A stretch of 64,000 nt of DNA, taken from assembly GCA_026396115.1 (NCBI GenBank), contig JAPLXL010000002.1, forward strand, positions 5,142 to 69,141, written 5' to 3'. Shown here one piece after another: positions 3 to 62,003 of this stretch. Position 1 is the stretch's first letter. The number at the start of each line of letters is the position of its first letter. The notes beneath the pieces were generated by a model. That model did no database searches. It was not told where the DNA came from and saw only the letters and a program-made list of their open reading frames with translations. This stretch comes from Candidatus Nealsonbacteria bacterium (GTDB taxonomy: Bacteria; Patescibacteriota; Minisyncoccia; Minisyncoccales; RBG-13-42-11). A program made the position numbers and the translations under genes.

Positions 3-509
3 AATTACAAAAAAGGACCCGTCTCCGCCAAGGCTTCGTCGGGTACCCGAGCCGCAGCGAAGGGTAAAGAAGAGGATTTATACTCTTCGCCCAAGGAAAA
101 AATTAATGTTAAAGATATAGAGTTATTAGTAAAACCGAAAATTGAAACAGCTATTTTTAAAACAATTGATGCCATTGCTCAAAAAAATAAAAAACAAACT
201 TTATTATTAATTCACCAACATTTAGAAAAAGGCGACAACCCTCTCTATCTTCTTTCGATGATTAATTTCCAATTTAGAAATCTTTTAATGATAAAAGACC
301 TTATTGAAAGACATAGGCCGTACTATTCTATTTTAAAAATGACCCACCTTCATCCCTTTGTTGTTAAAAAAAGCTGCCAACAAGCTAATAAATTTACTCT
401 TCAAGAGTTAAAAAAAATCTACCAGAAAATTTTTCAGGCAGACCTTTCAATTAAAACCGGGAAAACAACGCCGGAAACCGCTTTGGATTTATTGCTTACC
501 GAGATTTAA
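3..509 (+). CDS. holA: DNA polymerase III delta subunit, C-terminal part (5' end outside window)
   Basis: Frame 3 translated by hand is open from nt 3 to TAA 507-509. The C-terminal sequence (FQFRNLLMIKD...IYQKIFQADLSIKTGK) looks like the HolA C-terminal domain. Adjacent convergent rpsT. Carries an in-frame family A repeat at 45-92. Confidence 0.65.
   Translation, partial: NYKKGPVSAKASSGTRAAAKGKEEDLYSSPKEKINVKDIELLVKPKIETAIFKTIDAIAQKNKKQTLLLIHQHLEKGDNPLYLLSMINFQFRNLLMIKDLIERHRPYYSILKMTHLHPFVVKKSCQQANKFTLQELKKIYQKIFQADLSIKTGKTTPETALDLLLTEI
45..92. repeat. Family A hairpin element, type A1, in-frame in holA
   Basis: ACCCGAGCCGCAGCGAAGGGTAAAGAAGAGGATTTATACTCTTCGCCC. Near-identical to 61261-61312 and to the reverse complement of 27967-28013. 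Confidence 0.9.
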
Positions 510-598
510 TTTATGAAAGCGAAGTCGAAGAAAATTCCTTCTTCTTCACCTCAGCTGAAGCTTCGGTAGTTGAAGAAGAGAATAAAATTCTCTTCGCC
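509..598. repeat. Family A composite element (type A3) filling the holA/rpsT spacer
   Basis: Its reverse complement aligns along its length with 61901-61990. Flanked by the 12-bp direct repeat TACCGAGATTTA (497-508 and 599-610). Confidence 0.85.
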
Positions 599-864
599 TA
601 CCGAGATTTAGAAATTAATTTAGTAATTCTGGATTTATTTCTTGAGGCGGTATTCTTTTTGATTAATCCGGTTTTAGCTGCTTTGTCTAAAACTTTGTAA
701 ACTTGGGGCAGAAGTTTTTTTGCTTCTTCAATTTTCTTTTCTGAAACCAAAAGCTTCATTTCTTTTAAGAGTTTCTTTAATTCTCTCATTTTCCGGAGAT
801 TACGAACTCTTCTTTTAAAACTTTGGCGAAGAGCCTTTTTTGCGGATTTGATAATGGGACACAT
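598..864 (-). CDS. rpsT: 30S ribosomal protein S20
   Basis: SAKKALRQSFKRRVRNLRKM... is a typical S20 sequence. Start set at ATG 864 (MCPIIKSAKK), because the longer ORF to 882 would overlap the uvrB 3' end. Confidence 0.85.
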   Translation of the reverse strand: MCPIIKSAKKALRQSFKRRVRNLRKMRELKKLLKEMKLLVSEKKIEEAKKLLPQVYKVLDKAAKTGLIKKNTASRNKSRITKLISKSR

Positions 865-4171: not shown

Positions 4172-4675
4172 ATGAAACGCTACGAAATTTTAGAGCATAA
4201 AGCTGATTTAAAAATTAAGGTCAAAGGTTCATCAAAAGAAGAACTTTTCCTTAATGCTCTTTTGGGAATGGAGGAAGGATTGAGGCCGGAAACTAAAGAA
4301 ACCAAAGAAGAAATCAAAAGAGAAATTAAAATAAAATCCATTGATTTACCGGCTCTTTTGGTTGATTTTTTGAACGAGGCATTATATCTAATTCAGGTTC
4401 ATAAAGAAATTTATAATAAGATAAAATTTGTTAAATTTTCTGAAAACGAGGGCGAAGAAGATAAATCTTCTTCTTTACTCTTCGCTGCTCGGGTGGGCGA
4501 AGAAAATAAATCTTTTTCTTCCCCCTTCAATACCGCTCGGGAGCTGGAAGGAGAATTAATTGGTCAAAAAGTAGAAAGATTTGGCGAAGACATTAAGGCA
4601 GTTACCTATCACGATTTAGATATCTACCAGAAAGAAGATGGAACCTGGGAGGCAGTTGTTCTTTTCGATATATAA
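4172..4675 (+). CDS. Archease (RtcB activator) carrying two tandem in-frame repeat copies
   Basis: N-terminal YEILEHKADLKIKV and C-terminal IKAVTYHDLDI...WEAVVLFDI are archease-like. Lies directly upstream of rtcB. Confidence 0.8.
   Translation: MKRYEILEHKADLKIKVKGSSKEELFLNALLGMEEGLRPETKETKEEIKREIKIKSIDLPALLVDFLNEALYLIQVHKEIYNKIKFVKFSENEGEEDKSSSLLFAARVGEENKSFSSPFNTARELEGELIGQKVERFGEDIKAVTYHDLDIYQKEDGTWEAVVLFDI
4451..4542. repeat. Two tandem family A type A1 elements, in-frame in the archease gene
   Basis: GGCGAAGAAGATAAATCTTCTTCTTTACTCTTCGCTGCTCGGGT followed by GGGCGAAGAAAATAAATCTTTTTCTTCCCCCTTCAATACCGCTCGGGA. Confidence 0.9.
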
Positions 4676-11841: not shown

Positions 11842-13092
11842 ATGAAGTTCGTAGCTGATTTTCATATTCATAGCAGATATTCACGGGCAACTTCCCGACA
11901 TATGGATTTGGAAAATCTTGATAAGTGGGCAAGAATTAAAGGAATTAAGGTTCTGGGAACCGGGGATTTCAGCCATCCCGAATGGTTTAAATCTTTAAAA
12001 GAAAAATTAGAACCTGCAGAGATAGGTCTTTTTAAGTTAAAAAAACAAGACAATGGGACGCGTTTTATATTGACTAATGAAATTAGCTGCATTTATTCAA
12101 AAAAAGGAAGAGTCAGAAAAATTCATATTTTAATTTTTAGTCCCTCTTTTGAAGCGGCAGAAAAAATTAATGTCCAATTAAGTTGGATTGGCAATTTAAA
12201 GGCAGATGGCAGGCCAATTTTAGGGTTAGATGCTAAAGAATTAGCCAAAATTGTTTTAAACGCTTCGGAAGATTGTTTAGTTGTACCAAGCCATGCCTGG
12301 ACTCCTTGGTTTTCTATTTTTGGTTCAAAATCAGGATTTGATTCAATTGAAGAATGTTTTGAAGAATACTCAAAATATATTTATGCTTTGGAAACCGGGC
12401 TTTCTAGCGATCCCTTAATGAATTGGCGGTTATCAGCTTTGGATAAAATTACTTTAATCAGTAATTCCGACGCGCACAGTGGACCAAAATTGGGCAGAGA
12501 AGCAAATGTTTTTGATACAGAGCTTAGTTATCAGTCAATTATTGGAGCAATTAAAACCAAAAATCCTCAAAAATTTTTGTACACAATTGAATTTTTTCCA
12601 GAAGAAGGAAAATATCATTATGACGGCCATAGAAATTGCGAAATTAGATTGTCTCCAAAAGAAACCAAAAAATATAACGGAATTTGTCCGGTTTGCGGTA
12701 AACCGTTGACAATTGGAGTTCTAAACAGGGTTGAAGAGCTGGCTGATAGAAAAGAAGGTTTTATTCCGGAGAGAGCCATTCCTTTTAAAAGTTTAGTTCC
12801 TTTAGAAGAGATTATTGCCGATGCTTTAGGTTGTTCTACCGGAACCAAGGGAGTTGAAAAAGAATACAAAAATTTAATTGAAAAATTGGGCTCAGAATTT
12901 AATATTCTTCTTGAGGTGCCGCCAGAAAACCTGCAGACCGTAACTCTTCCTGAAATCAGTGAGGCAATAATAAGAGTGAGAAAAGGGAAGGTGGTTAAAG
13001 AACCTGGATACGACGGAGTTTACGGGAAAATAAAAATTTTTTCTTCGGGCGAAAGAAAAAAGGATAGCTTTAAACAAAAAACTTTGTTTTAA
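11842..13092 (+). CDS. PHP-domain endonuclease Q-like protein (TIGR00375 family)
   Basis: N-terminal FHIHSRYSRATS PHP motif and a central zinc motif HRNCE...CPVCGKPLTIGVLNRVEELA. Confidence 0.55.
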   Translation: MKFVADFHIHSRYSRATSRHMDLENLDKWARIKGIKVLGTGDFSHPEWFKSLKEKLEPAEIGLFKLKKQDNGTRFILTNEISCIYSKKGRVRKIHILIFSPSFEAAEKINVQLSWIGNLKADGRPILGLDAKELAKIVLNASEDCLVVPSHAWTPWFSIFGSKSGFDSIEECFEEYSKYIYALETGLSSDPLMNWRLSALDKITLISNSDAHSGPKLGREANVFDTELSYQSIIGAIKTKNPQKFLYTIEFFPEEGKYHYDGHRNCEIRLSPKETKKYNGICPVCGKPLTIGVLNRVEELADRKEGFIPERAIPFKSLVPLEEIIADALGCSTGTKGVEKEYKNLIEKLGSEFNILLEVPPENLQTVTLPEISEAIIRVRKGKVVKEPGYDGVYGKIKIFSSGERKKDSFKQKTLF

Positions 13093-13093
13093 A

Positions 13094-13171
13094 GGGCGAA
13101 GAGAACTTCATTCTCTTTTTCAGCTATCCGAATGACAATGAAGGGTTAAGAAGAGATTTATTTCTTCGACC
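13094..13171. repeat. Family A composite element between the endoQ-like gene and ispG (supplies the ispG stop)
   Basis: GGGCGAAGAGAACTTCATTCTCTTT ... GGGTTAAGAAGAGATTTATTTCTTCGACC. Confidence 0.8.
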
Positions 13172-14231: not shown

Positions 14232-14232
14232 T

Positions 14233-14289
14233 AACCGAGCTTACATTTATGGAAGCGAAGGTGAAGAAGAGGACGAATTCCTCTTCACC
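14233..14289. repeat. Family A type A2 element between ispH and ispG
   Basis: AACCGAGCTTACATTTATGGAAGCGAAGGTGAAGAAGAGGACGAATTCCTCTTCACC. Confidence 0.9.
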
Positions 14290-18587: not shown

Positions 18588-19220
18588 ATGATAGGCATTA
18601 ATAAAGTTATTAAAACTCTTATTCTTTCTGATTTTTTTCTTCAGTCCGGCTGGGGCTTAATTGGTCCGATTTTTGCCATATTTATAACCCAGCAAATTCA
18701 AGGAGGAAGCTTGGCTAGCGTTGGTTTTGTCGCTGCAACCTATTGGTTTATAAAATCAATTGTCCAGCCTTTTATTGCTCATTTTCTTGATGTAAAAAAA
18801 GGAGAAAAGGACGATTTTAAATTTTTGATTTTAGGTATGTATTTAGCCAATTTGGTTCCTTTTGGCTATATTTTTGCCACTCAACTCTGGCACGTCTTTT
18901 TATTGGAAACTATTAGGGGATTATGTATGGCTTGCGTGGTTCCTGCTTGGGCAGGTATCTTCACCAGACACATTGACAAGGGCTGGGAAGCGTTTTCTTG
19001 GAGCATTGAAAGCACGGGCATTGGTTTTGCGGCTGCCCTTGCCGCTGCCTTTGGCGGAATATTGGCAACCTTTTTGGGCTTTAAGGTTGTTTTTGTCTTA
19101 GTTAGCTTTTTTGGATTGATATCTTCTTCGCTTTTGCTTTTGATCCGCAATCAACTTTTCCCCAAAGGCCATTTTGAGCCCAAAGTTAAGCCTGGCGAAA
19201 AACCAGAAAGACAATTTTGA
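18588..19220 (+). CDS. Six-helix membrane protein, MFS-half-like
   Basis: Hydrophobic helices throughout. The ATG at 18588 is preferred to the TTG at 18573. Function is not assignable from sequence alone. Confidence 0.4.
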   Translation: MIGINKVIKTLILSDFFLQSGWGLIGPIFAIFITQQIQGGSLASVGFVAATYWFIKSIVQPFIAHFLDVKKGEKDDFKFLILGMYLANLVPFGYIFATQLWHVFLLETIRGLCMACVVPAWAGIFTRHIDKGWEAFSWSIESTGIGFAAALAAAFGGILATFLGFKVVFVLVSFFGLISSSLLLLIRNQLFPKGHFEPKVKPGEKPERQF

Positions 19221-19223
19221 TGA

Positions 19224-19282
19224 GTCGAAGAGGACGAAGTCCTCTTCTTCACCTTCGCTTTCGCTGCGCGAAAGCTCGGTAT
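19224..19282. repeat. Family A type A2 variant filling the spacer upstream of polX
   Basis: GTCGAAGAGGACGAAGTCCTCTTCTTCACCTTCGCTTTCGCTGCGCGAAAGCTCGGTAT, followed directly by ATG. Confidence 0.9.
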
Positions 19283-21055
19283 ATGAAGAACCAAGAACTC
19301 GTCAAGATATTCTACGAAATTGCTGATTATCTCGAAATGGAAGAGGTAGCTTTCAAGCCTTACGCTTACCAAAAGGCAGCTATTACTTTAGAAACTTTAG
19401 AGGAAGATGTTGAAAAAATCTACAAAAAAGGAGGAGTTAAAGCCCTCGAAGAAATTCCCGGCGTAGGAAAAAGCATTGCGGAAAAAATTGAAGAATATTT
19501 AAAAACAGGGAGAATTAAATATTATGAAGAATTTAAAAAGAAGCTGCCTCTTAATTTGGGAGAAATAACTTCTGTTGAGGGAATGGGACCAAAAAAGGCA
19601 ATGGTTTTGTATCAAAAATTGGGGATTAAAAATCTAAAAGATTTGGAAAAAGCAGCCAGAGTCCATAAAATTGCTTTTTTGTTCGGTTTTGGCGAGAAAA
19701 CTGAAAAAAATATTTTAGAAGGGATTGCCTTTTTAAAAAAGAGCAAGGGAAGGTTTCTTTTGGGTGAAATTTTACCCCGGGTAAAAGAAATTTTAGAAAG
19801 ATTGGGAAAATTAAAAGAAATTGAACAGATTGATGCGGCCGGTTCTGTCAGGAGAATGAAAGAAACTATTGGCGATGTTGATATTTTAGTGGCTGTTAAG
19901 GAATCAAAAAAGCCCGCCTTCGCCAAAGCTTCAGCGGATAAAATAATGGATTTTTTTGTTCAATTGTCGGGAATAATTAAAGTTTGGATGAATGGTCCCA
20001 CCAAATCATCTGTTAGAATGGAACAAGGTTTTGATGTGGATTTGAGGGTGGTAAAAAAGAAAAGTTACGGCTCAGCCCTTCAATATTTTACAGGCTCAAA
20101 AGAGCACAACATCGTTACCAGAAGAATTGCCATAGAAAAAGGTTTGAAGCTTTCAGAATACGGTCTTTTTAAAGGAAAAAAGATGATCGCCGGTTGGTCC
20201 GAAGCTGGAATTTATAAAGCTCTTGGCCTTCCTTGGATTGAACCAGAATTGCGAGAAAATCAAGGAGAAATAGAAGCGGCCCTTCGACAAGCTCAGGGCA
20301 AACTCAATGGATTACCAAAATTGGTTGGTTACAAAGACATTAAAGGTGATTTGCATTGTCATTCTGATTGGGATGGCGGAGTAAATTCAATTGAAGAATT
20401 GGCAAGAGCAGCAAAAGATTTTGGTTATGAGTATTTGGGAATTGCTGACCACACAAAATTTTTAAGAATAGAACACGGGTTGGATGAAAGGAAATTAGAA
20501 TTGCGAAATAAAGAAATTGATAAACTTAACCAAAAATACAAAAATTTCAAAATTCTGAAAGGCGCTGAAACCAATATTTTAAACGACGGGTCAATTGATA
20601 TTAAAAATGAGGCCTTAAAAAAATTGGATTATGCTATTGCTGGAATTCATTCTAATTTCAAAATGGGAAAAACCGAAATGACAGAAAGAATAATTCGGGC
20701 AATGAAAAATCCCAATATTGATATTCTTTCTCATCCAACCGGGAGAATATTAAAAAGAAGAGACGAATATCTTTGCGACTTTGACAAAATCTTAAGAGTA
20801 GCTAAAGAATACAATGTAGTTTTGGAAATAAACGCTTTCCCTGAAAGATTGGATTTAAACGACCGGCACATTCGCCGAGCAAAAGAATCGGGAGTAAAAA
20901 TGGTTATTAACACCGACGCCCATTATAAAGACCAATTAAGATTTATAGAATTGGGTATTGCCCAGGCCAGGAGAGGCTGGGCAACTGCAGAAGATATTAT
21001 TAACACCCAATCATTAGAAAAATTACTAAAGTTTTTAGACAAAATATGCCAGTAG
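19283..21055 (+). CDS. polX: Family X DNA polymerase with C-terminal PHP domain (PolX)
   Basis: HhH motifs, GSVRRMKETIGDVDILV catalytic motif and PHP motif DLHCHSDWDGG. Start set at ATG 19283 (MKNQELVKIFYEIADYLE), since upstream codons are repeat DNA. Confidence 0.9.
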   Translation: MKNQELVKIFYEIADYLEMEEVAFKPYAYQKAAITLETLEEDVEKIYKKGGVKALEEIPGVGKSIAEKIEEYLKTGRIKYYEEFKKKLPLNLGEITSVEGMGPKKAMVLYQKLGIKNLKDLEKAARVHKIAFLFGFGEKTEKNILEGIAFLKKSKGRFLLGEILPRVKEILERLGKLKEIEQIDAAGSVRRMKETIGDVDILVAVKESKKPAFAKASADKIMDFFVQLSGIIKVWMNGPTKSSVRMEQGFDVDLRVVKKKSYGSALQYFTGSKEHNIVTRRIAIEKGLKLSEYGLFKGKKMIAGWSEAGIYKALGLPWIEPELRENQGEIEAALRQAQGKLNGLPKLVGYKDIKGDLHCHSDWDGGVNSIEELARAAKDFGYEYLGIADHTKFLRIEHGLDERKLELRNKEIDKLNQKYKNFKILKGAETNILNDGSIDIKNEALKKLDYAIAGIHSNFKMGKTEMTERIIRAMKNPNIDILSHPTGRILKRRDEYLCDFDKILRVAKEYNVVLEINAFPERLDLNDRHIRRAKESGVKMVINTDAHYKDQLRFIELGIAQARRGWATAEDIINTQSLEKLLKFLDKICQ

Positions 21056-25780: not shown

Positions 25781-28678
25781 ATGGATAAGCTTTCTGAAAT
25801 AGAAAAAAAAGTATTAAATTTTTGGGAAAGGAACAAAATATTTGAGAAATCAATCAAAGAAAGAAAAGGAAAGCCTTTTTTCAGCTTTTATGACGGTCCC
25901 CCTTTTGCTACTGGTATTCCTCATTACGGCCACATTTTAGCGACGACCATAAAGGACACGGTTTTGCGCTACTGGACGATGAAAGGATATCAGGTCCCCA
26001 GAAGGGTTGGTTGGGACTGCCACGGCCTTCCGGTTGAAAATCTGATAGAAAAAGAATTGGGGATAAAAAGCAAAAGAGAGATTGAAGATCTGGGAATTGA
26101 AAAGTTCAACAAGCTCTGCAGAGATTCGGTCTTCAGATGCGTCAAGGAATTTGAAGTCACCCTAAAGAGAGTGGGCCGATGGGCCGACTACAAAAACTAT
26201 TATGCCACTCTGGACAACGACTATATTGAATCGGTCTGGTGGGTTTTCAGCCAGCTGTGGAAAGAAGGGCTGATCTACAAAGATTACAGAGTTAGTCCCT
26301 ATTGTCCCAGATGCGGTACTCCTCTTTCAAACTTTGAGGTTAATCAAGGATACAAAGACGTTAAGGACAATTCGATTTATGTAAAATTCAGGGTTAAGAG
26401 TTCCCGATTCAAAGGTTCCTATCTTTTGGCCTGGACCACGACTCCCTGGACTCTTCCCGGGAACGTCGCCTTAGCGGTTGACCCCAAAGCCAGCTACCTT
26501 TTGGTAAAAGAAGATGGGGAATCGCTGATTTTGGCTAAAGCCCGACTGTCCGTGCTTAAGGGAAAATATAAGATAATAAAGAAACTTAGGGGAAAAGAAT
26601 TGAAAGGCCTAAGATATGACCCCTTGTTTAACTGTTTAAGCGGAGTCCAAAATATTGAAAATGCTTTCCAAATTCTGCCAGCTTCCTTTGTTTCGACCAA
26701 CGAGGGGACGGGAATTGTCCACACTGCGGTGATGTACGGCGAAGATGACTTTCGCCTGGGCAGAAAGTATAATCTGCCTGCGCATCATACGGTTGACGAA
26801 TCGGGAAAGTTCAAGAAAGAGGTAGAGAAGTGGGCGGGCTGCTTTGTCAAGGACACAGAAGGAGAGATTACTGAGGATTTGAGTAAAAGAGGGCTTTTAT
26901 ACAAAAAAGAGGTTATCTTGCATTCTTATCCTTTTTGCTGGAGGTGCGATACGCCTCTGCTTTACTATGCTCTTAATACTTGGTATATTGGCGTTTCCAA
27001 AATTAAAAAGAACTTAATTGAAAATAACAAGAAGATCCGTTGGGTTCCGTCTCATATTAAAAGCGGAAGGTTTGGCAAATGGTTGAAGACTGCCAGGGAT
27101 TGGGCGTTTTCCAGGAATCGCTTCTGGGGCGCTCCGATTCCAATTTGGCAATGTAGAAAATGCGGAGAGTATAAGTGTATTGGCAGCACAAAAGAACTCG
27201 GCGTTAAATTAAAGGATTTGCATCGTCCGTATATTGATAAGATTGAACTAAAATGTAAGTGCGGTAGTAAAATGAAAAGAGTAGAGGAGGTTTTTGACTG
27301 CTGGTTTGAATCAGGGTCCATGCCCTATGCCCAAAGGCATTATCCTTTTGAAAACAAGAAGCTGGTTGAAAGCACATTTCCGGCCGATTTTATTGCCGAA
27401 GGACTGGACCAGACCAGGGGCTGGTTTTATACTCTCCACGTTCTCTCCTCAGCCCTTACTTTGAAAGATAGGGGGCTGGGAAAAAACAAGCCCGCCTTCA
27501 AAAATTCTATTGTCAACGGGATGATTTTAGATTCCCTGGGAAGAAAGCTAAGTAAAAAATTGAGCAATTATCCCGAAACTGGCGAAGTTTTTGAAAAGTA
27601 CGGGGCAGACTCCTTAAGGTATTTCCTTCTCTCTTCTACTCCGATAGGCGAGGATTATCTTTTCTCGGCCAAGGGAGTTGAAGACGCTTACCGAAAGGTT
27701 ATTTCTACTTTATGGCACAGTTATTCCTTCTTCGTAACCTATAAAGACAAGAACTTTAAGCCCAAGCACAGTTTCAAGGTTAATGATGAATTGAACAAAT
27801 GGATTCTTTCAAGACTCAATGCGACAAACAAAGAGGTCTCCTATTGGATGGATAGATACGAGCTTACCAGGGGATCCAGGCTTTTCACAAAATTCATGGA
27901 CGACCTTTCCAACTGGTATATCAGAAGGTCAAGAAGAAAATTCCAAAGAGCCAATAGTCATCGAGAGGGCGAAGAGGATAAATCCTCTTCTTCCCCCTTC
28001 GCTGCGGATCGGGAAAAAGAAGAAGCGTCGCAGGTCCTTTATCAAAGTCTGATGGTTTTGTGCAAAATGATGGCGCCTTTTACTCCTTTTGTGAGTGAAT
28101 ATATTTATCGAGCTCTAAAAATAAAGAAAGATCCGGAATCGGTCCATCTCTGTAATTATCCCAAACCCTTAAAGAGGCTTATTAATCCTGGACTAGAGAA
28201 GATGATGAAAAAAACAAGAGGGATTGTTGTTCTGGCTTTGGCTGAAAGAGCTAAAACAGGGATTAAGGTTCGTCAGCCGTTAAATAAATTGCGAATTGCG
28301 AATTATGAATTACAGAGAGAGAAAAAATTACTGGAGTTGATCAAGGACGAAGTAAATGTAAAAGAAATTAGTTTTGGCAAAACATTAAAATTGGACACTA
28401 AAATTACGCCAGAGCTTAAAGAAGAAGGCATAATTAGAGAAATTATCCGCCAAATTCAGGAAATGAGAAAGATGGCAGGTTATACACCAAAAGATATGAT
28501 TTCAATTCAATTTGATGGTTCGGAAAAGATAGCAGATATTTTAATAAAAAATAAAAATAAAATTATGGTGGAAACAAAGTCCCGAGATTTAAAATTGGGT
28601 AGGAAGGAGAAATTTAAAATTGAAAAAGAAGTAAAGGTCGACAATGAAAATTTATGGTTAGCAATTTTTAAAATTTAA
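25781..28678 (+). CDS. ileS: Isoleucine--tRNA ligase
   Basis: 965 aa with PFATGIPHYGH (HIGH), KLSKKLSN (KMSKS-like) and a CP1 editing domain. In-frame repeat at 27967-28013. Confidence 0.95.
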   Translation: MDKLSEIEKKVLNFWERNKIFEKSIKERKGKPFFSFYDGPPFATGIPHYGHILATTIKDTVLRYWTMKGYQVPRRVGWDCHGLPVENLIEKELGIKSKREIEDLGIEKFNKLCRDSVFRCVKEFEVTLKRVGRWADYKNYYATLDNDYIESVWWVFSQLWKEGLIYKDYRVSPYCPRCGTPLSNFEVNQGYKDVKDNSIYVKFRVKSSRFKGSYLLAWTTTPWTLPGNVALAVDPKASYLLVKEDGESLILAKARLSVLKGKYKIIKKLRGKELKGLRYDPLFNCLSGVQNIENAFQILPASFVSTNEGTGIVHTAVMYGEDDFRLGRKYNLPAHHTVDESGKFKKEVEKWAGCFVKDTEGEITEDLSKRGLLYKKEVILHSYPFCWRCDTPLLYYALNTWYIGVSKIKKNLIENNKKIRWVPSHIKSGRFGKWLKTARDWAFSRNRFWGAPIPIWQCRKCGEYKCIGSTKELGVKLKDLHRPYIDKIELKCKCGSKMKRVEEVFDCWFESGSMPYAQRHYPFENKKLVESTFPADFIAEGLDQTRGWFYTLHVLSSALTLKDRGLGKNKPAFKNSIVNGMILDSLGRKLSKKLSNYPETGEVFEKYGADSLRYFLLSSTPIGEDYLFSAKGVEDAYRKVISTLWHSYSFFVTYKDKNFKPKHSFKVNDELNKWILSRLNATNKEVSYWMDRYELTRGSRLFTKFMDDLSNWYIRRSRRKFQRANSHREGEEDKSSSSPFAADREKEEASQVLYQSLMVLCKMMAPFTPFVSEYIYRALKIKKDPESVHLCNYPKPLKRLINPGLEKMMKKTRGIVVLALAERAKTGIKVRQPLNKLRIANYELQREKKLLELIKDEVNVKEISFGKTLKLDTKITPELKEEGIIREIIRQIQEMRKMAGYTPKDMISIQFDGSEKIADILIKNKNKIMVETKSRDLKLGRKEKFKIEKEVKVDNENLWLAIFKI
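27967..28013. repeat. Family A type A1 element, in-frame in ileS
   Basis: GGGCGAAGAGGATAAATCCTCTTCTTCCCCCTTCGCTGCGGATCGGG. Confidence 0.92.
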
Positions 28679-29858: not shown

Positions 29859-30015
29859 GGCGAAGAGGACTTCGTCCGTCGAGTCAAAGACGAGACGAAA
29901 GAAGAAAAACTTTTCTTCGCACTCTTATTCACCTTCGCTTCCATAGTCGAAAGAGAATTTCATTCTCTTTCTCACCTTCGCTTCCTTCGGAAGCTCGGTA
30001 ATGGAAGCTCGGTAT
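29859..30015. repeat. Left inverted-repeat arm (family A2 with nested insertions)
   Basis: Positions 29860-29945 are the reverse complement of 31706-31791 (85/86 by hand alignment). A 54-nt extra family A module lies at 29946-29999. Confidence 0.9.
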
Positions 30016-31692
30016 ATGAAAAAATTTACTATTTTTGTCATTATTTTAACCGTGATAGTTGGGATTTTTGGTTTTTATTATTATCAAAGGAATATTTACT
30101 CAAAAGATATTTTAAGATTGGAAATTTTGGGCCAAGAAGAGACAGAGTTGCTTCAGGAGATTAAATATATTGTAAAGTATAAGAACAACGGAAACGTCAG
30201 GTTGGAAGAGCCGGAGCTCATTTTTGATTATCCTTCTTATTCTATACCCGCAGACGGAACGTCCTTAAGGGTTATTAAAAAATCGGAAGAATTGGGAGGA
30301 GTTATTTATCCCGGCCAGGAAAAAACTTTTACTTTTACAGCCAGGCTTATGGGCCGAGAGGGAGAAATTAAAGAGGCTCAAGTCACATTATCGTATCGAC
30401 CAAAGAATTTAAAAGCTCGTTATGAATCAAAAACTTCATTTACGACAATAATAAAAAAAGTTCCTCTCAATTTTGATTTTGATTTGTCTGCAAAAATTGA
30501 GTCCGGAAAAGAATTAAAATTTAGGTTAAATTATTTCTCGAATGTAGATTATCCGCTTTCCGGCTTGACAATAATGATTGATTATCCTTCAGGTTTTGAA
30601 TTTATTGATTGTACCCCAAAATCTTTAGAAAAAACTGAATGGGATCTTGAGCTTTTGAATAAAGCTGAAGGAGGAAGAGTCGAAATCTCGGGTAAACTGA
30701 TAGGTGAAGTTGGGGAAGAAAAAGTTTTTCGAGCAAGAATAGGCACTTGGCAAGACGGCGAGTTTATTTTGTTAAGGGAAGCAGCCAGAGGAATAACCAT
30801 TATTAGACCGGCTTTATACATTACTCAGCAGATTAACAACAATCCTAAATTTATAGCCAGTCCCGGCAACTTGCTTCATTATGAAATTTTCTTTAAAAAT
30901 ATTGGTGAAGAATTTTTAAGCGATATGTTTTTGCTGGTCACTTTAACCGGTTCAGCCTTTGATTTTAAGACAGTTCAAGCGCCGGAAGGAGATTTTACTC
31001 CGGGAGACAATTCCATAATTTGGGATTGGAGAAAGGTAAGAGATCTCCAGCTTTTGCCCCCTCAATCAGAGGGCAAGATTGAGTTTTGGGTGAAATTGAA
31101 AGATGAATGGGAAATTAAAGGTTTAGAAGACAAAAATCCTGAAATTCTGAGCACAATTTTTTTAAGCCAAGTTAAAGAAGAATTTGTCAATAAGGTTAAT
31201 TCAAAATTAATTGTTTCGCAAAAAGGATACTTTAGCGATGAAGTTTTTGGAAATGTCGGCCCTTTTCCTCCTAAGATTGGAGAAACCACAACTTATACAA
31301 TTATTTGGCAGGTTAAGAACTATTATAACGAGATGAAAGATGTAAAAGTCAAAGCCACTCTGCCCAAAAATGTAAATTTAACCGGTAAAATTTTCCCCGA
31401 AGCAGAAGTTGACAAAATTACTTTTGATTCGCAATCCCGGGAGATAGTTTGGAATGTTGGCGATTTAATGGTTGGACAAGGAGTTTTAAATCAGGGTCCC
31501 AATATTTCTTTCCAGATCGCTTTTTTGCCTGAAGAAAATCAAAAAGGAGAAACTCCGGAATTAATTAGTCAAGCAAAAATTATTGGTCAAGACCAATGGA
31601 CCGGCGAAATCCTCCAGTCTACAGCTTCTTTCATTGACACAACTCTGCAAGACGACCAAGCCATTGCTCCCGGCTCAGGAGTTGTTCAATAA
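30016..31692 (+). CDS. Membrane-anchored multi-beta-sandwich (CARDB/DUF11-like) surface protein, bracketed by inverted repeats
   Basis: N-terminal TM helix (FTIFVIILTVIVGIFGFYYY) followed by repetitive beta-rich segments. Start set at ATG 30016, since the upstream 5 codons are repeat DNA. Confidence 0.6.
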   Translation: MKKFTIFVIILTVIVGIFGFYYYQRNIYSKDILRLEILGQEETELLQEIKYIVKYKNNGNVRLEEPELIFDYPSYSIPADGTSLRVIKKSEELGGVIYPGQEKTFTFTARLMGREGEIKEAQVTLSYRPKNLKARYESKTSFTTIIKKVPLNFDFDLSAKIESGKELKFRLNYFSNVDYPLSGLTIMIDYPSGFEFIDCTPKSLEKTEWDLELLNKAEGGRVEISGKLIGEVGEEKVFRARIGTWQDGEFILLREAARGITIIRPALYITQQINNNPKFIASPGNLLHYEIFFKNIGEEFLSDMFLLVTLTGSAFDFKTVQAPEGDFTPGDNSIIWDWRKVRDLQLLPPQSEGKIEFWVKLKDEWEIKGLEDKNPEILSTIFLSQVKEEFVNKVNSKLIVSQKGYFSDEVFGNVGPFPPKIGETTTYTIIWQVKNYYNEMKDVKVKATLPKNVNLTGKIFPEAEVDKITFDSQSREIVWNVGDLMVGQGVLNQGPNISFQIAFLPEENQKGETPELISQAKIIGQDQWTGEILQSTASFIDTTLQDDQAIAPGSGVVQ

Positions 31693-31791
31693 CCGAGCTT
31701 CCATTTATGGAAGCGAAGGTGAAGAAGAGTGCGAAGAAAAGTTTTTCTTCTTTCGTCTCGTCTTTGACTCGACGGACGAAGTCCTCTTCGC
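31691..31791. repeat. Right inverted-repeat arm (family A2 with one nested insertion)
   Basis: See the left arm. It starts inside the stop codon of the bracketed gene. Confidence 0.9.
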
Positions 31792-31811
31792 TAAAGGTTA
31801 AAATAAAATCA

Positions 31812-34418: not shown

Positions 34419-34555
34419 TCAAAGAAGGCAAACCTTTTTTTCCATACTTCGTTTGCTCAATGAAATAAAAATTTCATTTCGACGTTCGATTGATGAAATA
34501 TAAATTGAGACGTAAGATGAGATTTATCTCATCGAACTTATAAATAAAAACTCGT

Positions 34556-53129: not shown

Positions 53130-53173
53130 TTGAATTATGAATTTATTTCATTTAAAAATCAATAAAAGAGAAA

Positions 53174-53201
53174 GGGGTTGTGAGATTTCTCTCACAACCC
53201 C
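53174..53201 (-). terminator. Intrinsic terminator of the Cys-rich ORF
   Basis: Perfect 12-bp stem GGGGTTGTGAGA/TCTCACAACCCC, followed on the minus strand by TTTCTCTTTT. Confidence 0.8.
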
Positions 53202-53214
53202 CGTTGGAACGTGT

Positions 53215-53526
53215 CTATATGTCGTCGTAGGCAGACGAGTGTGTGAAGCGCCGACCGCAGCAGTAGCAGAGTGCAATGTAGTAGTTCGTGACGTGATCTT
53301 CTTGCCGTCCGCACTTCTTGCATCGCTGTGTCTGCACTTCCTTCATCTGCGCCATCGGCTTGCCGCAGCACCGAGTGAACCACCAGGTCTTCTTGCCGAA
53401 GATTCCTGGATTGGGCTCGAACCGCTTCTCACCGACGTTTTCCCACTCCGGTCCGTGGTCAAGGCACCTGCCGTGAACACACTGGCCGTGTGGATACTTC
53501 TGACCTGCAAGATTGCTATGTTCCAT
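53215..53526 (-). CDS. Cys/His-rich small protein (103 aa, 9 Cys), putative zinc-binding, in GC-rich island
   Basis: ATG is preceded by AAGGAGG at a 7-nt spacing, with its own promoter and terminator. Contains CKKCG and CYCCG motifs. No family recognised. Confidence 0.6.
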   Translation of the reverse strand: MEHSNLAGQKYPHGQCVHGRCLDHGPEWENVGEKRFEPNPGIFGKKTWWFTRCCGKPMAQMKEVQTQRCKKCGRQEDHVTNYYIALCYCCGRRFTHSSAYDDI

Positions 53527-53573
53527 AGCACATCCTCCTTTCTGGCCACCCGTTTTCTTAGGTGCCAATTAAT

Positions 53574-53601
53574 ATGATACATGAAATCAGTAAAAAGTCA
53601 A
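53574..53601 (-). promoter_or_regulatory. Sigma70-like promoter (TTGACT - 16 nt incl. TG - TATCAT) for the Cys-rich ORF
   Basis: Read on the minus strand: CTCTTGACTTTTTACTGATTTCATGTATCAT. Confidence 0.5.
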
Positions 53602-55048: not shown

Positions 55049-57166
55049 TTATTTTTTTTCAAGTTTATAGCTACATTCCTTGTTTGAACATTTAACCTGT
55101 TCTCTTTTTGTTTGAACTAAAAGCGAACCGCATTTTTGGCATTTTTTTCCGGTGGGTTTGTCCCACAAAGCAAAGTCGCATTTTGGAAACTGGTTGCAGC
55201 CGTAGAAGATTTTTCTTTTTTTGGTTCTTTTTTCAACAATTTCTCCCTTTTTGCATTTGGGGCATTTTATTCCCAAAATATTCTTTTCTAAAGATTCCGT
55301 ATATCTGCATTTTGGAAACTTGGAGCAGGCATAAAATTTGCCGTATTTTCCGAGGCGAATTAACAACGGGGCTCCGCATTTTGGACAAGTTTTTTTTGTC
55401 GGTTTTTCGGTAATGTCTTTTTTGGAAACCTCTTCATATTTTTGTTTTAGATTTTTTTCAAACGGATTGTAAAAATCTTTTATCACCTTGATCCATTCTT
55501 TTTGATTATTGGCAATTTTATCCAGATTTTCTTCCATTTTGGCAGTAAATCCAACGTCAACGATTTCCGGAAAATGAGCCACTAAAAGATCATTAACCAC
55601 CAGACCGATCTCGGTTGGCCGGAATCTTCTTTGTTCATCCTTCTCAATATAGTTTTTTTCTTGAATGTTTGATAAAGTCGGAGCATAGGTTGAGGGTCTG
55701 CCAATTCCGTTTTCTTCCAAGACCTTAATTAAAGTTGCTTCATTGTATCTTGGTGGAGGTTGAGTAAAATGCTGCGAGGGAAGGAGTTTAATTAGTTCCA
55801 AAATCTCTTCCTTCTCCAAAACTGGGAGCTCTTTCTCCTCAAATTTCAAAGGATAAACTTTCAGGAATCCGTCAAACTTGAGAATTTGCCCTGTGGTTCT
55901 AAATGTATATATTTTTGATTTTAGGGCTTCGATATCAACGACAGTCGAGTCGAAGCTCGCCTGTGCCATTTGGCAGGCAATAAATCTTCGCCAGATTAAA
56001 TCATAGAGTTTTATCTGTTGGTTATCTAATTTGAGCTTATCGGGCGTTTTATCAGGATAAGCGGGCCTTATTGCTTCGTGAGCCTCTTGGGCACCCTTGC
56101 TTTTTGTTTTGTATTTTCTTAAAAATCCTGGCCAATAATTTTCACCATAATTTTTAACAATAAATTTTTTCGCAGCAAATAAAGATAAATTGGAGAGATT
56201 TAGAGAATCGGTCCGGTGATACGTGATTTTTCCAGTTTCGTAAAGTTGTTGGGCAATTCGCATTGTTAGTTTTGCCGGAAATTTAAATTTTTGCCAAGCG
56301 GTTTGCTGTAGAGTACTGGTAGTAAATGGCGGTAGAGGATTTCTCTTTATTTCTTTTTTTTCAACATTAATTACTTTATATTCTGCTCCTTCCAAATCTT
56401 TTAAAATTCCATCCGCCTCTTCCTTTGTTTTAATTCCCAATTTCGGAATAGCTTCCCCGTCTCTTTTAACCAAAACCGCTTCGAATTCGTTATTTTTGAT
56501 TTTTGATTTTTGAAAGGCGAAGAGGACTTCGTCCTCTTCTTCACATTCGCTTCCATGAATGGAAGCTCGGTTTTTGAGGAGCGTAGCGACGATACTCCAG
56601 TACTCTTGAGCGATAAAATTTTCAATTTCTCTTTCCCGTTCTACGACAAATCGTACTGCTACCGACTGAACTCGTCCGGCCGATAACCCCCTGGCAACTT
56701 TTTTCCATAAAAATGGAGAAAGCTTGTAACCGACAATTCTATCTAAAATTCTTCTGGCCTGCTGGGCGTTGACTAAATTAATATCAATTTTTCTCGGATT
56801 TTTTAAGGACTCTTTAATGGCTGATTTGGTAATTTCATGGAAAAAAATTCGTTGATATTTTTTATCTTTATTAAGGTTTAGGAGAAAGATTAAGTGGTAG
56901 GCGATTGCTTCTCCCTCCCGGTCTTGGTCGGTTGCCAAAATTACCAATTCTGCTTTTTGAGACTCTTTTTTTAAAGATTCCACATTTTTTTTAGCCCGGG
57001 GGATGATGATGTACTTTGGTTTGAAATTATTTTTCAAATCAATTCCAAATTCATCTTCCGGCAGGTCCCGCATGTGGCCGTAAGAAGACAAAACTTGGTA
57101 TTTTGGGCCTAAAAATTTTGATATTGTTTTAGATTTAGCAGGACTTTCAACGATAACTAATAGCAT
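55049..57166 (-). CDS. topA: DNA topoisomerase I
   Basis: 705 aa with a TOPRIM N-terminus (LVIVESPAKSKTI), catalytic region ITYHRTDS and C-terminal zinc ribbons (CPKCG..., CPKCKKG..., CQKCG...). In-frame repeat at 56516-56571. Confidence 0.95.
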   Translation of the reverse strand: MLLVIVESPAKSKTISKFLGPKYQVLSSYGHMRDLPEDEFGIDLKNNFKPKYIIIPRAKKNVESLKKESQKAELVILATDQDREGEAIAYHLIFLLNLNKDKKYQRIFFHEITKSAIKESLKNPRKIDINLVNAQQARRILDRIVGYKLSPFLWKKVARGLSAGRVQSVAVRFVVEREREIENFIAQEYWSIVATLLKNRASIHGSECEEEDEVLFAFQKSKIKNNEFEAVLVKRDGEAIPKLGIKTKEEADGILKDLEGAEYKVINVEKKEIKRNPLPPFTTSTLQQTAWQKFKFPAKLTMRIAQQLYETGKITYHRTDSLNLSNLSLFAAKKFIVKNYGENYWPGFLRKYKTKSKGAQEAHEAIRPAYPDKTPDKLKLDNQQIKLYDLIWRRFIACQMAQASFDSTVVDIEALKSKIYTFRTTGQILKFDGFLKVYPLKFEEKELPVLEKEEILELIKLLPSQHFTQPPPRYNEATLIKVLEENGIGRPSTYAPTLSNIQEKNYIEKDEQRRFRPTEIGLVVNDLLVAHFPEIVDVGFTAKMEENLDKIANNQKEWIKVIKDFYNPFEKNLKQKYEEVSKKDITEKPTKKTCPKCGAPLLIRLGKYGKFYACSKFPKCRYTESLEKNILGIKCPKCKKGEIVEKRTKKRKIFYGCNQFPKCDFALWDKPTGKKCQKCGSLLVQTKREQVKCSNKECSYKLEKK
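56516..56571. repeat. Family A type A2 element, in-frame in topA
   Basis: GGCGAAGAGGACTTCGTCCTCTTCTTCACATTCGCTTCCATGAATGGAAGCTCGGT. Preceded by (ATTTTTG)x3 at 56491-56513. Confidence 0.92.
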
Positions 57167-58019: not shown

Positions 58020-58021
58020 AT

Positions 58022-58140
58022 TTTTTTATCTTATCATTTACTGAGCTTTTATGTAATAAAGGTCAAAGAGATAAATCTCTTTTTCATCTTCGTTTTCGCT
58101 GTGCGAAAACTTGATAAGTGAATAAGAATGAATATTCTTC
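58022..58140. repeat. ~120-bp module upstream of dprA (copy 1)
   Basis: About 114/120 identical (hand alignment) to 61141-61260. Confidence 0.9.
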
Positions 58141-61137: not shown

Positions 61138-61140
61138 AGA

Positions 61141-61260
61141 TTTTTTTATTATATCATTTACTGAGCTTTTATGTAATAAAGTTCAAAGAGATAAATCTCT
61201 TTTTCATCTTCGTTTTCGCTGTGCGAAAACTTGATAAATGAAGAAGAATGAATATTCTTC
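61141..61260. repeat. ~120-bp module upstream of pth (copy 2)
   Basis: Same orientation and same position relative to the downstream ATG as copy 1. Confidence 0.9.
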
Positions 61261-61312
61261 GCCTACCCGAGCCGCAGCGAAGGGGGAAGAAGAGGATTTA
61301 TCCTCTTCGCCT
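61261..61312. repeat. Family A type A1 element (intergenic reference copy)
   Basis: GCCTACCCGAGCCGCAGCGAAGGGGGAAGAAGAGGATTTATCCTCTTCGCCTAC. Confidence 0.92.
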
Positions 61313-61900: not shown

Positions 61901-62003
61901 GGCGAAGAGGGCTTCACCCTCTTCTTAATCTACCGAAGCTTCAGCTGAGGTGGAGAAGAATGAATGTTCTTCGATTCGCTTTCGCTGCGCGAAAGCTCGA
62001 TAT
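61901..62003. repeat. Family A composite (A3) filling the lepB/hisS spacer
   Basis: GGCGAAGAGGGCTTCACCCTCTTC...CTACCGAAGCTTCAGCTGAGGTG...TTCGCTTTCGCTGCGCGAAAGCTCGATAT, followed directly by ATG. Confidence 0.9.

Follow-up and report, generated by a model that had tools for sequence, protein, structure and literature searches.

The window, by which we mean the whole stretch of 64,000 nt of Candidatus Nealsonbacteria DNA that was analysed, carried at least 16 modules of a short palindromic repeat in 64 kb, and at several genes a repeat unit ran up to the start codon. Units occurred between genes and in-frame inside genes, in both orientations, and formed tandem as well as nested arrays. They are given below together with the start-codon junctions; labels of the type L067 denote loci of relatives used for comparison.

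35..91, minus strand: Family B unit at the window edge
497..606, minus strand: two-module composite between rpsT and the convergent holA; not in L011, L020 and L051
1611..1657, minus strand: Family B unit (48-nt insertion), in-frame in uvrB, right after an older half element
4451..4542, plus strand: archease gene with two in-frame Family B units in tandem
13095..13170, plus strand: degenerate hairpin modules after the ORF 11842..13092, convergent with ispG
14232..14289, minus strand: Family A unit in the lytB-ispG spacer; terminus GCTCGGTTA adjoins the ispG ATG
14231-14229, minus strand: ispG ATG, preceded by the junction sequence AAGCTCGGTTA
19224..19282, plus strand: Family A unit filling the spacer between an MFS gene and polX; the close relatives L067, L068 and L152 have an empty site
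19271-19282, plus strand: polX junction sequence AAAGCTCGGTAT, then ATG at 19283-19285
19283..19288, plus strand: polX start and first codon, ATGAAG; ATG-A provides the T-G-A target motif
27968..28013, plus strand: Family B unit, in-frame in ileS
29859..30015, plus strand: composite in the spacer between recO and a surface-protein gene; terminus GCTCGGTAT before the ATG at 30016
30003-30015, plus strand: surface-protein junction sequence GGAAGCTCGGTAT, then ATG at 30016-30018
31691..31792, minus strand: composite A unit in the spacer between the surface-protein gene and proS, in opposite orientation
34419..34555, plus strand: degenerate modules filling the spacer between an M16 peptidase gene and an AI-2E transporter gene; terminus AAAAACTCGT, ATG at 34556
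56516..56571, plus strand: Family A unit, in-frame in the coding sequence of topA and antisense to the gene
58020..58140, minus strand: 121-nt composite upstream of dprA; terminus AAAAGCTCAGTAAATGA
61140..61311, minus strand: Family B unit, then composite unit, upstream of pth
61901..62003, plus strand: two-module composite in the lepB-hisS spacer; terminus GCTCGATAT before the ATG at 62004
61992-62003, plus strand: hisS junction sequence AAAGCTCGATAT, then ATG at 62004-62006

An earlier note on this DNA had described element termini fused to the ATG of polX, the surface-protein gene, hisS and ispG. All four junctions were found at the positions listed above, and the degenerate modules before the AI-2E transporter gene form a fifth one. 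The note had also assigned a related terminus to the dprA and pth modules, and both indeed end in AAAAGCTCAGTAAATGAT; the true ATGs of these two genes lie about 25-30 nt beyond this module end. The false N-terminal extensions it described are present in ORF 30001..31692 (MEARYM...) and ORF 19217..21055 (...RFRCAKARYM...). Pfam alignments and about 120 PolX homologues (MKNQE...) identified the fused ATGs as the true starts; in the compared loci, gene starts were called by ORF logic.

Several spacers showed how the units are combined. The recO/surface-protein composite was a simple Family A unit, as in the relative L064, with two nested insertions, one of 44 nt in the hairpin 1 arm and one 54-nt A unit in the hairpin 2 loop. 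The lepB-hisS spacer held a simple unit in L075 and was empty in L069, L085, L074, L080 and most distant relatives. The site orthologous to the degenerate modules of the M16-AI-2E spacer was empty in L041 and occupied by a canonical Family A unit in L005. The composite upstream of dprA shared 96% identity with the pth copy, and the 3' end of the latter adjoins a native extended −10 (TGATATAAT); the relative L069 is without the proximal unit. Two units also reached the end of a gene: the lytB ORF runs into the lytB-ispG unit and stops at a TAA in the hairpin 2 loop (14249-14247), and the TAA stop of the surface-protein gene shares bases with the GGTTA terminus of the surface-protein/proS unit. 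Inside genes, the topA unit was not in L075 (net difference 51 nt), the uvrB unit was missing from L020 and L011, with L051 and L058 being without the half element as well, and the ileS site in L064 held only a 17-nt half-element-like stretch.

Structure, copy number and mobility of the repeat

The Family A element was a modular palindromic repeat of 45-57 nt with two hairpins and the consensus (A)GGCGAAGAGGAC-TTC-GTCCTCTTC TTCACC TTC [variable hairpin] TC GGT. In the polX unit, hairpin 1 (GAAGAGGAC-GAA-GTCCTCTTC) is followed by TTCACCTTC, hairpin 2 (GCTTTCGC-TGC-GCGAAAGC) and TCGGTAT. An alignment of 63 copies showed 95.4% of cells paired and 13 pairs changed on both sides, a result reached by 0/500 shuffles. 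Hairpin 2 was hypervariable in sequence, and its length varied by non-multiples of three. The palindromes fold equally well on both strands, and the fused AUG is predicted to be unpaired. UUCG tetraloops were considered as a sign of RNA function and rejected, as inspection showed UUC triloops with a closing C-G pair in place of cUUCGg.

Palindromy is confined to the two separate hairpins inside the unit. Inverted terminal repeats were not found; CGA is all that the 5' end GGCGAAGAG has in common with the reverse-complemented 3' end, ACCGAGCTTC. A fixed-length target-site duplication was not found in the clean recent insertions (#210, #218 and the 54-nt unit in the recO/surface-protein spacer), and Family B events within genes showed an AGG repeat of 3 nt at most. 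Target-site duplication was therefore rejected as a defining feature: the two flanks of one copy resembled each other more than flanks of different copies did (permutation p < 0.0005), yet the offsets and lengths of the matches were variable. Local low complexity, such as (TTTTGA)n, or deletion substrates probably account for some of the 5'/3' flank matches. A TA or 3-nt duplication suited some copies (TA/GGCG...GGTA, and AGG in Family B inside genes), but not most of them.

A search of the window against Rfam at gathering level matched only tmRNA and two tRNAs, with none on the repeats, and a search of the region 29800-30100 in E-value mode gave sub-threshold chance matches only. Among the genes of the window, all of them housekeeping genes, there was no transposase, RAYT (Y1 transposase) or reverse transcriptase. 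The searchable literature on repeats of CPR bacteria and Nealsonbacteria held no description of such a family, so the two-hairpin repeat, which is common in the very small Nealsonbacteria genomes, is apparently undescribed so far.

Scanning the GTDB genome set with a pattern free of flank bases gave 63 readable independent Family A copies in about 25 Patescibacteria genomes; Patescibacteria MAGs held 61 of the 63 matches. Related loci contained 324 pattern matches in 1.33 Mb. Long ORFs contained 33/134 Family A copies, and the in-frame inserts (45, 48, 54, 57 or net 51 nt) were located in uvrB, the archease gene, ileS, topA, polX and ybeY. Without the fused copies, 17 sense and 14 antisense copies were counted between co-directional genes, and 13 and 20, respectively, inside genes. 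A sense-orientation bias was thus discarded as a sign of an RNA role, since it vanishes on removing the start-fused copies.

Insertion polymorphisms were observed between strains 93-100% identical, and therefore the element is mobile now or was so recently. The polymorphic sites were the polX spacer and coding sequence, the rpmI and smpB starts, nested insertions, the pth and hisS spacers and topA. In ybeY, an exact insert of 54 nt had flanks 100% identical to those of the empty allele. The polarity of each event (insertion or deletion) was inferred from its phylogenetic spread, and at least one 'empty' site (L067, event #185 site) resembles a deletion between 8-nt direct repeats. The filled and empty rpmI alleles differ at codon 2 and at three synonymous sites, which is not what a simple insertion would leave.

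The flank motif and the origin of the fused ATG

The bases after ...GCTCGGT followed the pattern NNN-T-R-A in the 63 Family A copies. Counted from GGT, position +4 was T in 51/63 copies, +5 was G or A in 63/63 and +6 was A in 62/63. In the flank logo, these three positions carried 0.55, 0.99 and 1.32 bits, respectively; the 5' flank showed only an A at −1. An ATG occupied +3..+5 in 24/63 copies, and 18 of those 24 opened an ORF of at least 60 codons. With a looser pattern (95 copies), 21 copies had the first start of a co-directional long ORF at exactly that offset, and in about 13 others the starts were spread from 0 to +31. The recurrent element-ATG junction that the earlier note had described is thus beyond chance. 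Within the window the cases are few, as a chance likeness of four junctions would have it, but dozens of independent copies, spread over about 25 genomes, have the same junction, and we regard the probability of such a coincidence as negligible.

The T-R-A flank was also present away from starts, in 65-72% of intergenic and 45% of intragenic copies. Empty sites carried it at the aligned position in 11/25 events, all 11 of Family A, against a base-composition expectation of 4.8%. As the motif is already in orthologous empty sites, T-R-A is part of the target. The proposed preference for insertion immediately 5' of start codons therefore stands in a modified form: the preference is for T-(G/A)-A 3 nt past the joint, which ATG-A supplies. 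Two other roles for the motif were set aside. It is not an in-frame stop of a unit frame, as hairpin 2 has lengths that are not multiples of three and no start opens the frame. Pairing with the TCA of TTCACC found no support either, as about 30% of copies have TAA (a mispair) and the partner is invariant.

The same data bear on selection acting on its own, where insertion would be random and the fixed offset would be what survives in very short spacers. The empty-site spacers were 1-20 nt long, and the copies inside genes were all in-frame multiples of three, which reveals strong filtering. However, random insertion cannot yield a single-nucleotide peak, and it fails for T-R-A at +4..+6 far from starts or in empty sites, so that selection alone is a highly improbable explanation.

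The earlier note had also offered a portable initiation signal, possibly including the ATG itself, and this was mostly not borne out: the ATG is mostly native and the element carries neither a Shine-Dalgarno (SD) motif nor a sigma-70-like promoter. In about 8/10 junctions the ATG was at the same codon position in empty orthologues, as in hisS, polX, smpB, the AI-2E gene, the Mur-ligase gene and events #203 and #220. An ATG stood at the fixed offset in 29/54 copies with a co-oriented gene next, in 0/20 with the next gene on the opposite strand and in 3/33 inside genes. Since it is missing from copies that no co-oriented gene follows, the ATG is not part of the element. Two exceptions were observed. 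In hisS of L083, compared with L080, the insertion was inside the start codon and the ATG was rebuilt on both sides, partly from element bases. At pth, the unit gives a −35-like ATTACA at 18 nt from the native TGnTATAAT (extended −10).

A SD-like motif (GGAG, GAGG or AGGA) was not found in the element outside a paired hairpin arm, and a promoter scan of the polX unit gave no sigma-70-like −35/−10 hexamers; pth was the sole hybrid case. An internal promoter giving a leaderless transcript was rejected, as GAAGCT at −12..−7 is a poor −10, the spacer length varies and the scan was negative. Antisense copies (the 14 between co-directional genes and the 20 inside genes) showed that units are not restricted to sense-upstream positions. 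SD-like motifs were present in 3/52 genes of the window, against a background of 10%, and about half of Parcubacteria are without the anti-SD motif (PMC9297842). In many first genes, TATAAT preceded the ATG by 7-10 nt, an arrangement suggestive of widespread leaderless translation. With SD motifs nearly absent, an insertion flush with the ATG can be tolerated.

A related proposal is that each unit acts as a cassette with a 5' stop (TAG/GCG, or the TGA in GGCGATGAG) and a 3' start, which re-creates the start upon insertion. The rpmI filled allele has an old-start-like ATAATCGTCTA, then TAG/GGCG...GGTAT and a new ATG AAG, and the Ser2 of the empty allele is missing; hisS of L083 has an ATG at either end of its unit; 28/94 copies have a TAG that overlaps their 5' end; and in 5 copies the upstream ORF stops at the hairpin 1 TGA. 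Nevertheless, copies away from gene starts are without the ATG (the 0/20 and 3/33 above), in most filled/empty pairs the ATG has its native codon position, and the cleanly delimited inserts #210 and #218 end in GGT(A) and do not include an ATG. The rpmI case itself was rejected as proof of start donation: the majority L35 N-terminus is MKTRKS (51/120), so the filled allele probably keeps the ancestral start. We consider the cassette very unlikely.

The start-fused units might instead be of mobile origin and exapted as an expression module, kept because the folded RNA aids initiation without SD. The hairpins might bring the upstream stop and the AUG together for re-initiation, or an endonuclease might cut there and release a leaderless mRNA that begins with AUG. 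The units span the whole stop-start gap, with the upstream stop at most 12 nt from the 5' end or within hairpin 1. Compensatory change keeps both hairpins, the AUG is predicted to be unpaired, and the lack of SD motifs together with TATAAT near the ATGs suggests that leaderless translation is common. The polX, hisS and rpmI junctions are occupied in several lineages by differing unit variants, and start enrichment seems above the rough neutral estimate given below. On the other hand, units occur in both orientations, inside and between genes, with no sense-strand bias, and close relatives thrive without units at the same junctions. The spacing to the ATG is not fixed (usually 2 nt, 5 nt in L064 and L151, elsewhere 8-31 nt), and the palindromes fold alike on either strand. 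Exaptation of this kind is unlikely in our view. A more specific form, in which the start-fused units would be intercistronic expression signals (for 70S re-initiation or for cleavage to leaderless mRNAs) spread without a transposase and guided by Y-R-A, is distinctly unlikely; its copy mechanism would be template switching or an RNA intermediate, with Y-R-A three bases from the joint.

The start-fused Family A units are probably explained by a preference for a target site, together with purifying selection in a compact genome. Family A would be one member of a group of modular 45-57 nt two-hairpin repeats in Candidatus Nealsonbacteria and other Parcubacteria, a selfish DNA with no autonomous partner in view. 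New copies have a precise 3' joint, with 3 nt between it and a T-(G/A)-A that was there before. The 5' joint is untidy, and there is no regular duplication of the target; where units stand in tandem, the CGA of the following one takes the T-R-A register. A start followed by an A-initial codon (ATG-A, GTG-A) presents such a target site. With spacers of 0-20 nt and virtually no SD, the position 2 nt upstream of the ATG would be a rare harmless insertion point. Purifying selection, whose role we infer, would clear most other insertions, leaving in-frame inserts where a protein loop tolerates them and units that occupy exactly the stretch from the upstream stop to the downstream start. As ATG-A starts serve as targets and selection would keep insertions 2 nt upstream, the fused ATG is normally the gene's native start codon and not cargo. 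The start-fused fraction was about 54% of copies with a co-oriented gene downstream, against a rough, unsimulated estimate of 15-30% from T-R-A density and short spacers. As the enrichment seems above this estimate, extra positive selection or a finer target specificity may lie behind it.

Comparison with known repeats and consequences for the genome

Rickettsia palindromic elements (RPE) are short palindromes of a reduced genome, placed between genes and often in-frame in housekeeping genes, where they add a peptide, and they are without a known transposase (PMC10969869). The in-frame palindromic units in the six genes named above resemble them. RPE, however, are about 100-150 bp long and belong to Alphaproteobacteria, whereas the units here are of 45-57 nt, chained or nested into composites, in Patescibacteria. 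As host phylum and unit length set the two apart, we claim kinship with RPE only as an analogy. To our knowledge, RPE have not been reported at a fixed start-codon offset or with a T-R-A flank.

The units share with REP/BIME sequences and their RAYT system imperfect palindromes of tens of bases, compensatory change and tandem clusters. They also share a short conserved motif at the hairpin foot, which is GTAG in E. coli REPs and here often (G)TA/GGCGA. REPs are extragenic and mostly 3' of genes, whereas the units here also occur inside genes and flush with starts, and no RAYT gene was among the window genes.

Correia elements (CREE/NEMIS) of Neisseria are small and non-autonomous, lie mostly directly upstream of genes, are co-transcribed with them and can supply promoter hexamers (PMC10969869). 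The −35-like ATTACA contributed by the pth copy is comparable. Unlike the units here, which have neither terminal inverted repeats nor a regular duplication, Correia elements carry such repeats, a TA duplication and an IHF site. Their terminal inverted repeats are 26 bp long, and TA is their target duplication.

IS200/IS605 elements are hairpin-ended, make no target duplication and insert orientation-specifically next to a short target motif, with precision at one end. The units here likewise have subterminal hairpins and no target duplication. In IS200/IS605 a tetra- or pentanucleotide target adjoins the left end, whereas T-R-A lies 3 nt past the 3' end of the units; hairpin 2 is moreover hypervariable here, and TnpA was not found in the window. 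Classical DDE-derived MITEs are similarly small, non-coding, multi-copy and insertion-polymorphic, but the units are without their terminal inverted repeats or fixed-length target duplication.

The BOX, RUP and SPRITE repeats of Streptococcus pneumoniae and ERIC are modular and clustered and insert into one another (PMC10969869). Nested insertions of this type were seen in the recO/surface-protein unit, although the sequences are unrelated. We know of no report of these repeats at a fixed start-codon offset.

A precise 3' joint beside Y-R-A, an untidy 5' joint and no transposase point to a mechanism not yet characterised. The repeat also causes systematic errors in gene calling: false N-termini (MEARYM, MEARFM or MSRRGRSPLLHLR...) stand in public protein sets (P0002, P0045, P0125), C-terminal tails derive from a unit, as in lytB, and protein lengths are inflated. 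Filled and empty alleles of one start in strains 95% identical provide a natural experiment on AUG recognition without SD, with a stable hairpin 2-7 nt upstream of the AUG. A symbiotic candidate phyla radiation genome of 0.6-1 Mb still carries an active, very small selfish repeat, which remodels proteins via in-frame peptides and fills operon junctions; the Rickettsia palindromic elements are its parallel in a reduced lineage of other descent.

Repeat units joined to start codons

Family A repeats, two-hairpin palindromic units ending in GGT, were found directly before start codons at five places in the window. The first four junctions were read in the sequence.

polX junction, plus strand: AAAGCTCGGTAT then ATG at 19283
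Surface-protein junction, plus strand: GGAAGCTCGGTAT then ATG at 30016
hisS junction, plus strand: AAAGCTCGATAT then ATG at 62004
ispG junction, minus strand: AAGCTCGGTTA then ATG at 14231-14229
Fifth junction, AI-2E transporter gene: degenerate modules ending AAAAACTCGT then ATG at 34556

The four junctions reported in the earlier note were exact to the nucleotide, and its related terminus at dprA and pth was confirmed as AAAAGCTCAGTAAATGA, with the true starts lying about 25–30 nt further downstream. The fused ATGs are true starts according to Pfam alignments and 120 PolX homologues beginning MKNQE...; the NCBI call gives PolX 590 aa. The suspected false N-terminal extensions were present in the ORF list (ORFs 19217.. 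and 30001..). Public PolX proteins P0002 and P0045 and L35 protein P0125 showed false N-termini translated from the repeat unit (MSRRGRSPLLHLRLVNGTRYM..., MEARFM...), a systematic annotation artefact of the clade. Upstream of smpB (23419-23440, minus strand), AATGGAAGTA followed by ATGAAG resembles the remnant of a deleted unit (hairpin-2 3' arm plus GTA) and gave a false MEV extension in the ORF finder output. The lytB ORF enters a repeat unit for about 14 codons (14247-14291, minus strand; tail KVKRNSSSSSPSLP) and stops at a TAA in its hairpin-2 loop; the mobile unit supplies the coding sequence for the C-terminus of this protein.

As the scan pattern stopped at GGT, the flank beyond it (+1 onwards) was unbiased. 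The six bases after GGT read N N N T(51) R(63) A(62) in 63 readable independent copies, with 0.55, 0.99, and 1.32 bits at +4 to +6, respectively. In the 5' flank, the sole conspicuous position was an A at −1. Distances from element end to start codon gave a single-offset ATG peak in this multi-genome set: ATG stood at +3 to +5 in 24/63 copies, and in 18 of these 24 it began an ORF 60 codons or longer. A looser pattern gave 95 copies: in 21, a co-directional long ORF had its first start at the same offset, and in about 13 that start was scattered from 0 to +31. Chance is excluded as the source of the recurring junction. The hisS loci were picked via hisS and over-sample the hisS junction; the main statistics come from pattern-derived loci.

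Among 134 copies, ATG at +3 was observed in 29 of 54 with a co-oriented gene downstream, in 0 of 20 where the next gene lay on the opposite strand, and in 3 of 33 inside genes. T-R-A (T-(G/A)-A at +4 to +6) was found in 65–72% of intergenic copies and 45% of those inside genes. This split indicates that the ATG goes with gene starts and T-R-A with all copies. Random insertion filtered only by selection cannot explain the data, as it offers no route to a single-nucleotide peak, nor to T-R-A away from starts. Where units stood in tandem, the register of T-R-A was taken by the CGA in the GGCGAAG of the following unit; Family B, a shorter relative with terminus CCCTTCGCTGCGGCTCGGG, showed Y-R-A there, with A in 62/63 copies.

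Filled and empty sites

Orthologous sites with (filled) and without (empty) a unit were compared with related loci from other genomes (L-numbers), where gene starts were assigned by ORF logic. At hisS, most of about 70 relatives had a bare spacer (in L069, ACTAATTTT then ATGAAGAAACCG), and the window, L075, and a few other lineages carried differing unit variants before the same ATG AAG/AAA start. The polX site was filled, again with differing variants, in the window, L066, L064, L151, and L007, and empty in L067 and L152 (TAATTTTTT ATGGTA), L149 (ATGAGA), and L150 (TAGG ATGAAG). For smpB, L064 was filled and L067 empty, with ATGAAGATATTG common to both. The AI-2E transporter site was empty in L041, with a stop-start overlap TAATG, and filled in L005 and the window; at the Mur-ligase gene, L011 carried a unit and had GTG at the same codon, and L020 and the window carried none. 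In one comparison (event #203) the empty allele read GTG AAC and the filled allele ATG AAA at the identical position, and event #220 was similar. At pth, a 54-nt unit GGCGAAG...CTCAGT(A) was cleanly inserted at GCAAGT then AAATGATATAAT, and the target TGA is the TGn of the native extended −10.

In 11 of the 25 filled/empty events mapped automatically, T-R-A pre-existed at +4 to +6 of the empty site, against 4.8% expected from base composition; these 11 were all Family A. This frequency is close to that of filled copies, which indicates that T-R-A belongs to the target and not to the unit. The 3' joint was precise; at the 5' joint, additional bases (A, AA, AGA, or TG) or small deletions were frequent. 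Whether an individual event is an insertion or a deletion we infer. The earlier proposal that units insert preferentially just 5' of starts is supported in modified form: the preference is for T-R-A, which pre-exists in empty sites and also flanks copies away from starts. The other proposal, a portable start signal, is mostly not supported: the ATG is native in most filled/empty pairs and scarce off starts (0/20 and 3/33). A unit carrying its own start codon would account for rare events at most, such as the L083 hisS start, in which a 54-nt unit lies inside AT|G and ATG is rebuilt on both sides; rpmI is ambiguous, as MKTRKS is the majority N-terminus.

The window rpmI (21881-22066, minus strand) encodes an L35 starting MSKTRKS with no element upstream, and in L064 and L067 a composite unit is fused to ATG AAG ACA AGA (MKTRKS). 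Between them, synonymous differences fall in three successive codons despite 94% overall identity, and the window holds AAAACTCG, similar to the unit 3' end. At 18446-18539 the window has only 92 nt where close relatives (L064 6284-9256, L066 3237-6214, L067) hold about 3 kb with dCMP deaminase, HD-domain protein, and methyltransferase genes.

GGAG, GAGG, or AGGA within 20 nt upstream was found for 3/52 window genes vs 10% background. Upstream regions were AT-rich, with TATAAT 7–10 nt before ATG in several first genes (e.g., 10320; 43473; 58139-60091 and 60634-61137, both minus strand; 61352). The near absence of Shine-Dalgarno motifs and this short distance suggest, from sequence, widespread leaderless or near-leaderless mRNAs. 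A survey found the anti-SD motif missing from 16S rRNAs of about half of Parcubacteria (PMC9297842). In a genome lacking Shine-Dalgarno motifs, insertion 2 nt upstream of ATG removes no ribosome-binding site, and as empty-site spacers measured 1–20 nt, the T-R-A of ATG-A is often the sole target with the joint outside both ORFs.

A scan found no sigma-70-like promoter in the polX unit. At pth (61148-61177, minus strand), the unit contains a −35-like ATTACA at a distance of 18 nt from the native extended −10 TGATATAAT (TGnTATAAT), the two forming a candidate hybrid promoter. Exaptation as an intercistronic expression module is a less probable alternative, favoured by the conserved hairpins, the exactly filled stop-to-start gap, and the repeated occupation of the same junctions. 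However, empty alleles are healthy, spacing varies in some lineages, and copies other than the fused ones showed no sense bias (17 vs 14 between co-directional genes; 13 vs 20 inside genes).

Anatomy, mobility, and neighbouring repeats

A Family A unit reads (A)GGCGAAGAGGAC-TTC-GTCCTCTTC, TTCACC TTC, a second hairpin of variable sequence, and TC GGT. Hairpin-2 variants included GCTTCC-loop-GGAAGC, GCTTTCGC-TGC-GCGAAAGC, and GCCCCGC...GCGGGGC. In the 63-copy alignment, 95.4% of pair cells were standard and 13/20 pairs showed two-sided changes; 0/500 shuffles reached the observed pairing, and slid controls gave 35–55%. Being palindromes, the units folded well on both strands (z = −2.7 to −3.5). 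No Rfam family matched the unit. Units occurred singly, nested, or in tandem with the junction CTCGG(G)TA then GGCGA; the recO/surface-protein composite of the window is a simple unit, as in L064, plus two insertions (44 nt in the hairpin-1 arm and a 54-nt unit in the hairpin-2 loop).

In a pattern scan with one genome per GTDB species, the unit was almost confined to Patescibacteria MAGs: Candidatus Nealsonbacteria (including the complete 639-kb genome CP179888), other Parcubacteria, and MAGs labelled Saccharibacteria. The window itself comes from a Nealsonbacteria MAG and encodes no transposase or reverse transcriptase gene. Presence of the unit differed at many sites between strains 93–100% identical, so the family is mobile, or was very recently. 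Four window genes carry in-frame units.

uvrB: 1611-1657
archease: 4451-4542
ileS: 27968-28013
topA: 56516-56571 (antisense)

Several of these were absent from close relatives; others were found in polX and ybeY of relatives. The in-frame units add peptides of 15–19 residues, e.g., SEEDKSSSSPFATARE, to essential housekeeping genes. Two unrelated genes, polX (20280-20300) and uvrB (L020, L011), contain a 'half element' CCCTTCGACAAGCTCAGGG (peptide ALRQAQG), at which a full 48-nt Family B unit has landed in relatives. Two close relatives carry a Family B unit between ssrA and infC, directly past the tmRNA 3' end (L064 13459-13504; L067 reverse-strand offsets 2670-2715); the window, with its tmRNA gene at 22616-22967 (minus strand; tag ANLFKQPALAYV), does not.

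Other repeats were also seen. A different small hairpin repeat, AATGAATCTTCGATTCATTTCAAT (47812-47870 and 63652-63682), begins at the stop codon (TGA) of two genes and looks terminator-like; in other genomes (L003, L035, L037) it comes after some Family A units. A 40-nt direct repeat outside the GGCGAAG family (CGCGGCTCTGCCGCGCCGATGACAATTTCAAG..., 53082-53121 and 53741-53780, 93% identical) stands either side of ORF 53137..53577. Short (TTTTGA)n arrays adjoin several units (56490-56515, within topA on the antisense strand; flanks in L041, L053, L059). A long perfect hairpin, GAGCATATAAC-AAA-GTTATATGCTC (60185-60275, minus strand), in the spacer of about 250 nt upstream of mfd had no gathering-level Rfam match.

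Kinship and proposed origin

We file the units among small palindromic mobile repeats; literature searches returned no description of the unit in CPR or Nealsonbacteria. Having neither inverted terminal repeats nor regular target duplication, they failed the classical MITE tests. REP/BIME share small palindromes in arrays, but REP are strictly extragenic and these units are not. Correia elements resemble the units in inserting upstream of genes with hybrid promoters, BOX/RUP/SPRITE repeats in modularity and nesting, and IS200/IS605-derived elements in their hairpin ends, one-sided target, and lack of duplication. By analogy, the functionally closest counterpart is the Rickettsia palindromic element, likewise found in frame inside housekeeping genes. 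Those repeats are palindromic too, their host genome is likewise reduced, and no transposase is known for them (PMC10969869).

Most likely, the units are selfish, non-autonomous palindromic DNA, each new copy being joined 3 nt upstream of T-(G/A)-A, with ATG-A starts among such sites. Template switching, gene conversion from arrays, or an RNA-primed route would be compatible with three observations: joints are polar, hairpin 2 has been exchanged as a whole between the window and L066 (strains 96% identical), and units have landed beside units or half units already in place. The mobility, the motif at filled and empty sites, the native ATG, and the scarcity of Shine-Dalgarno motifs are observed; the weight of selection is an inferred part of this proposal, the neutral expectation for the fraction of copies at starts being an estimate. 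Selection in a compact genome lacking Shine-Dalgarno motifs may leave mainly two surviving classes: units in frame within tolerant loops of proteins, and units that exactly span the distance from stop to start.
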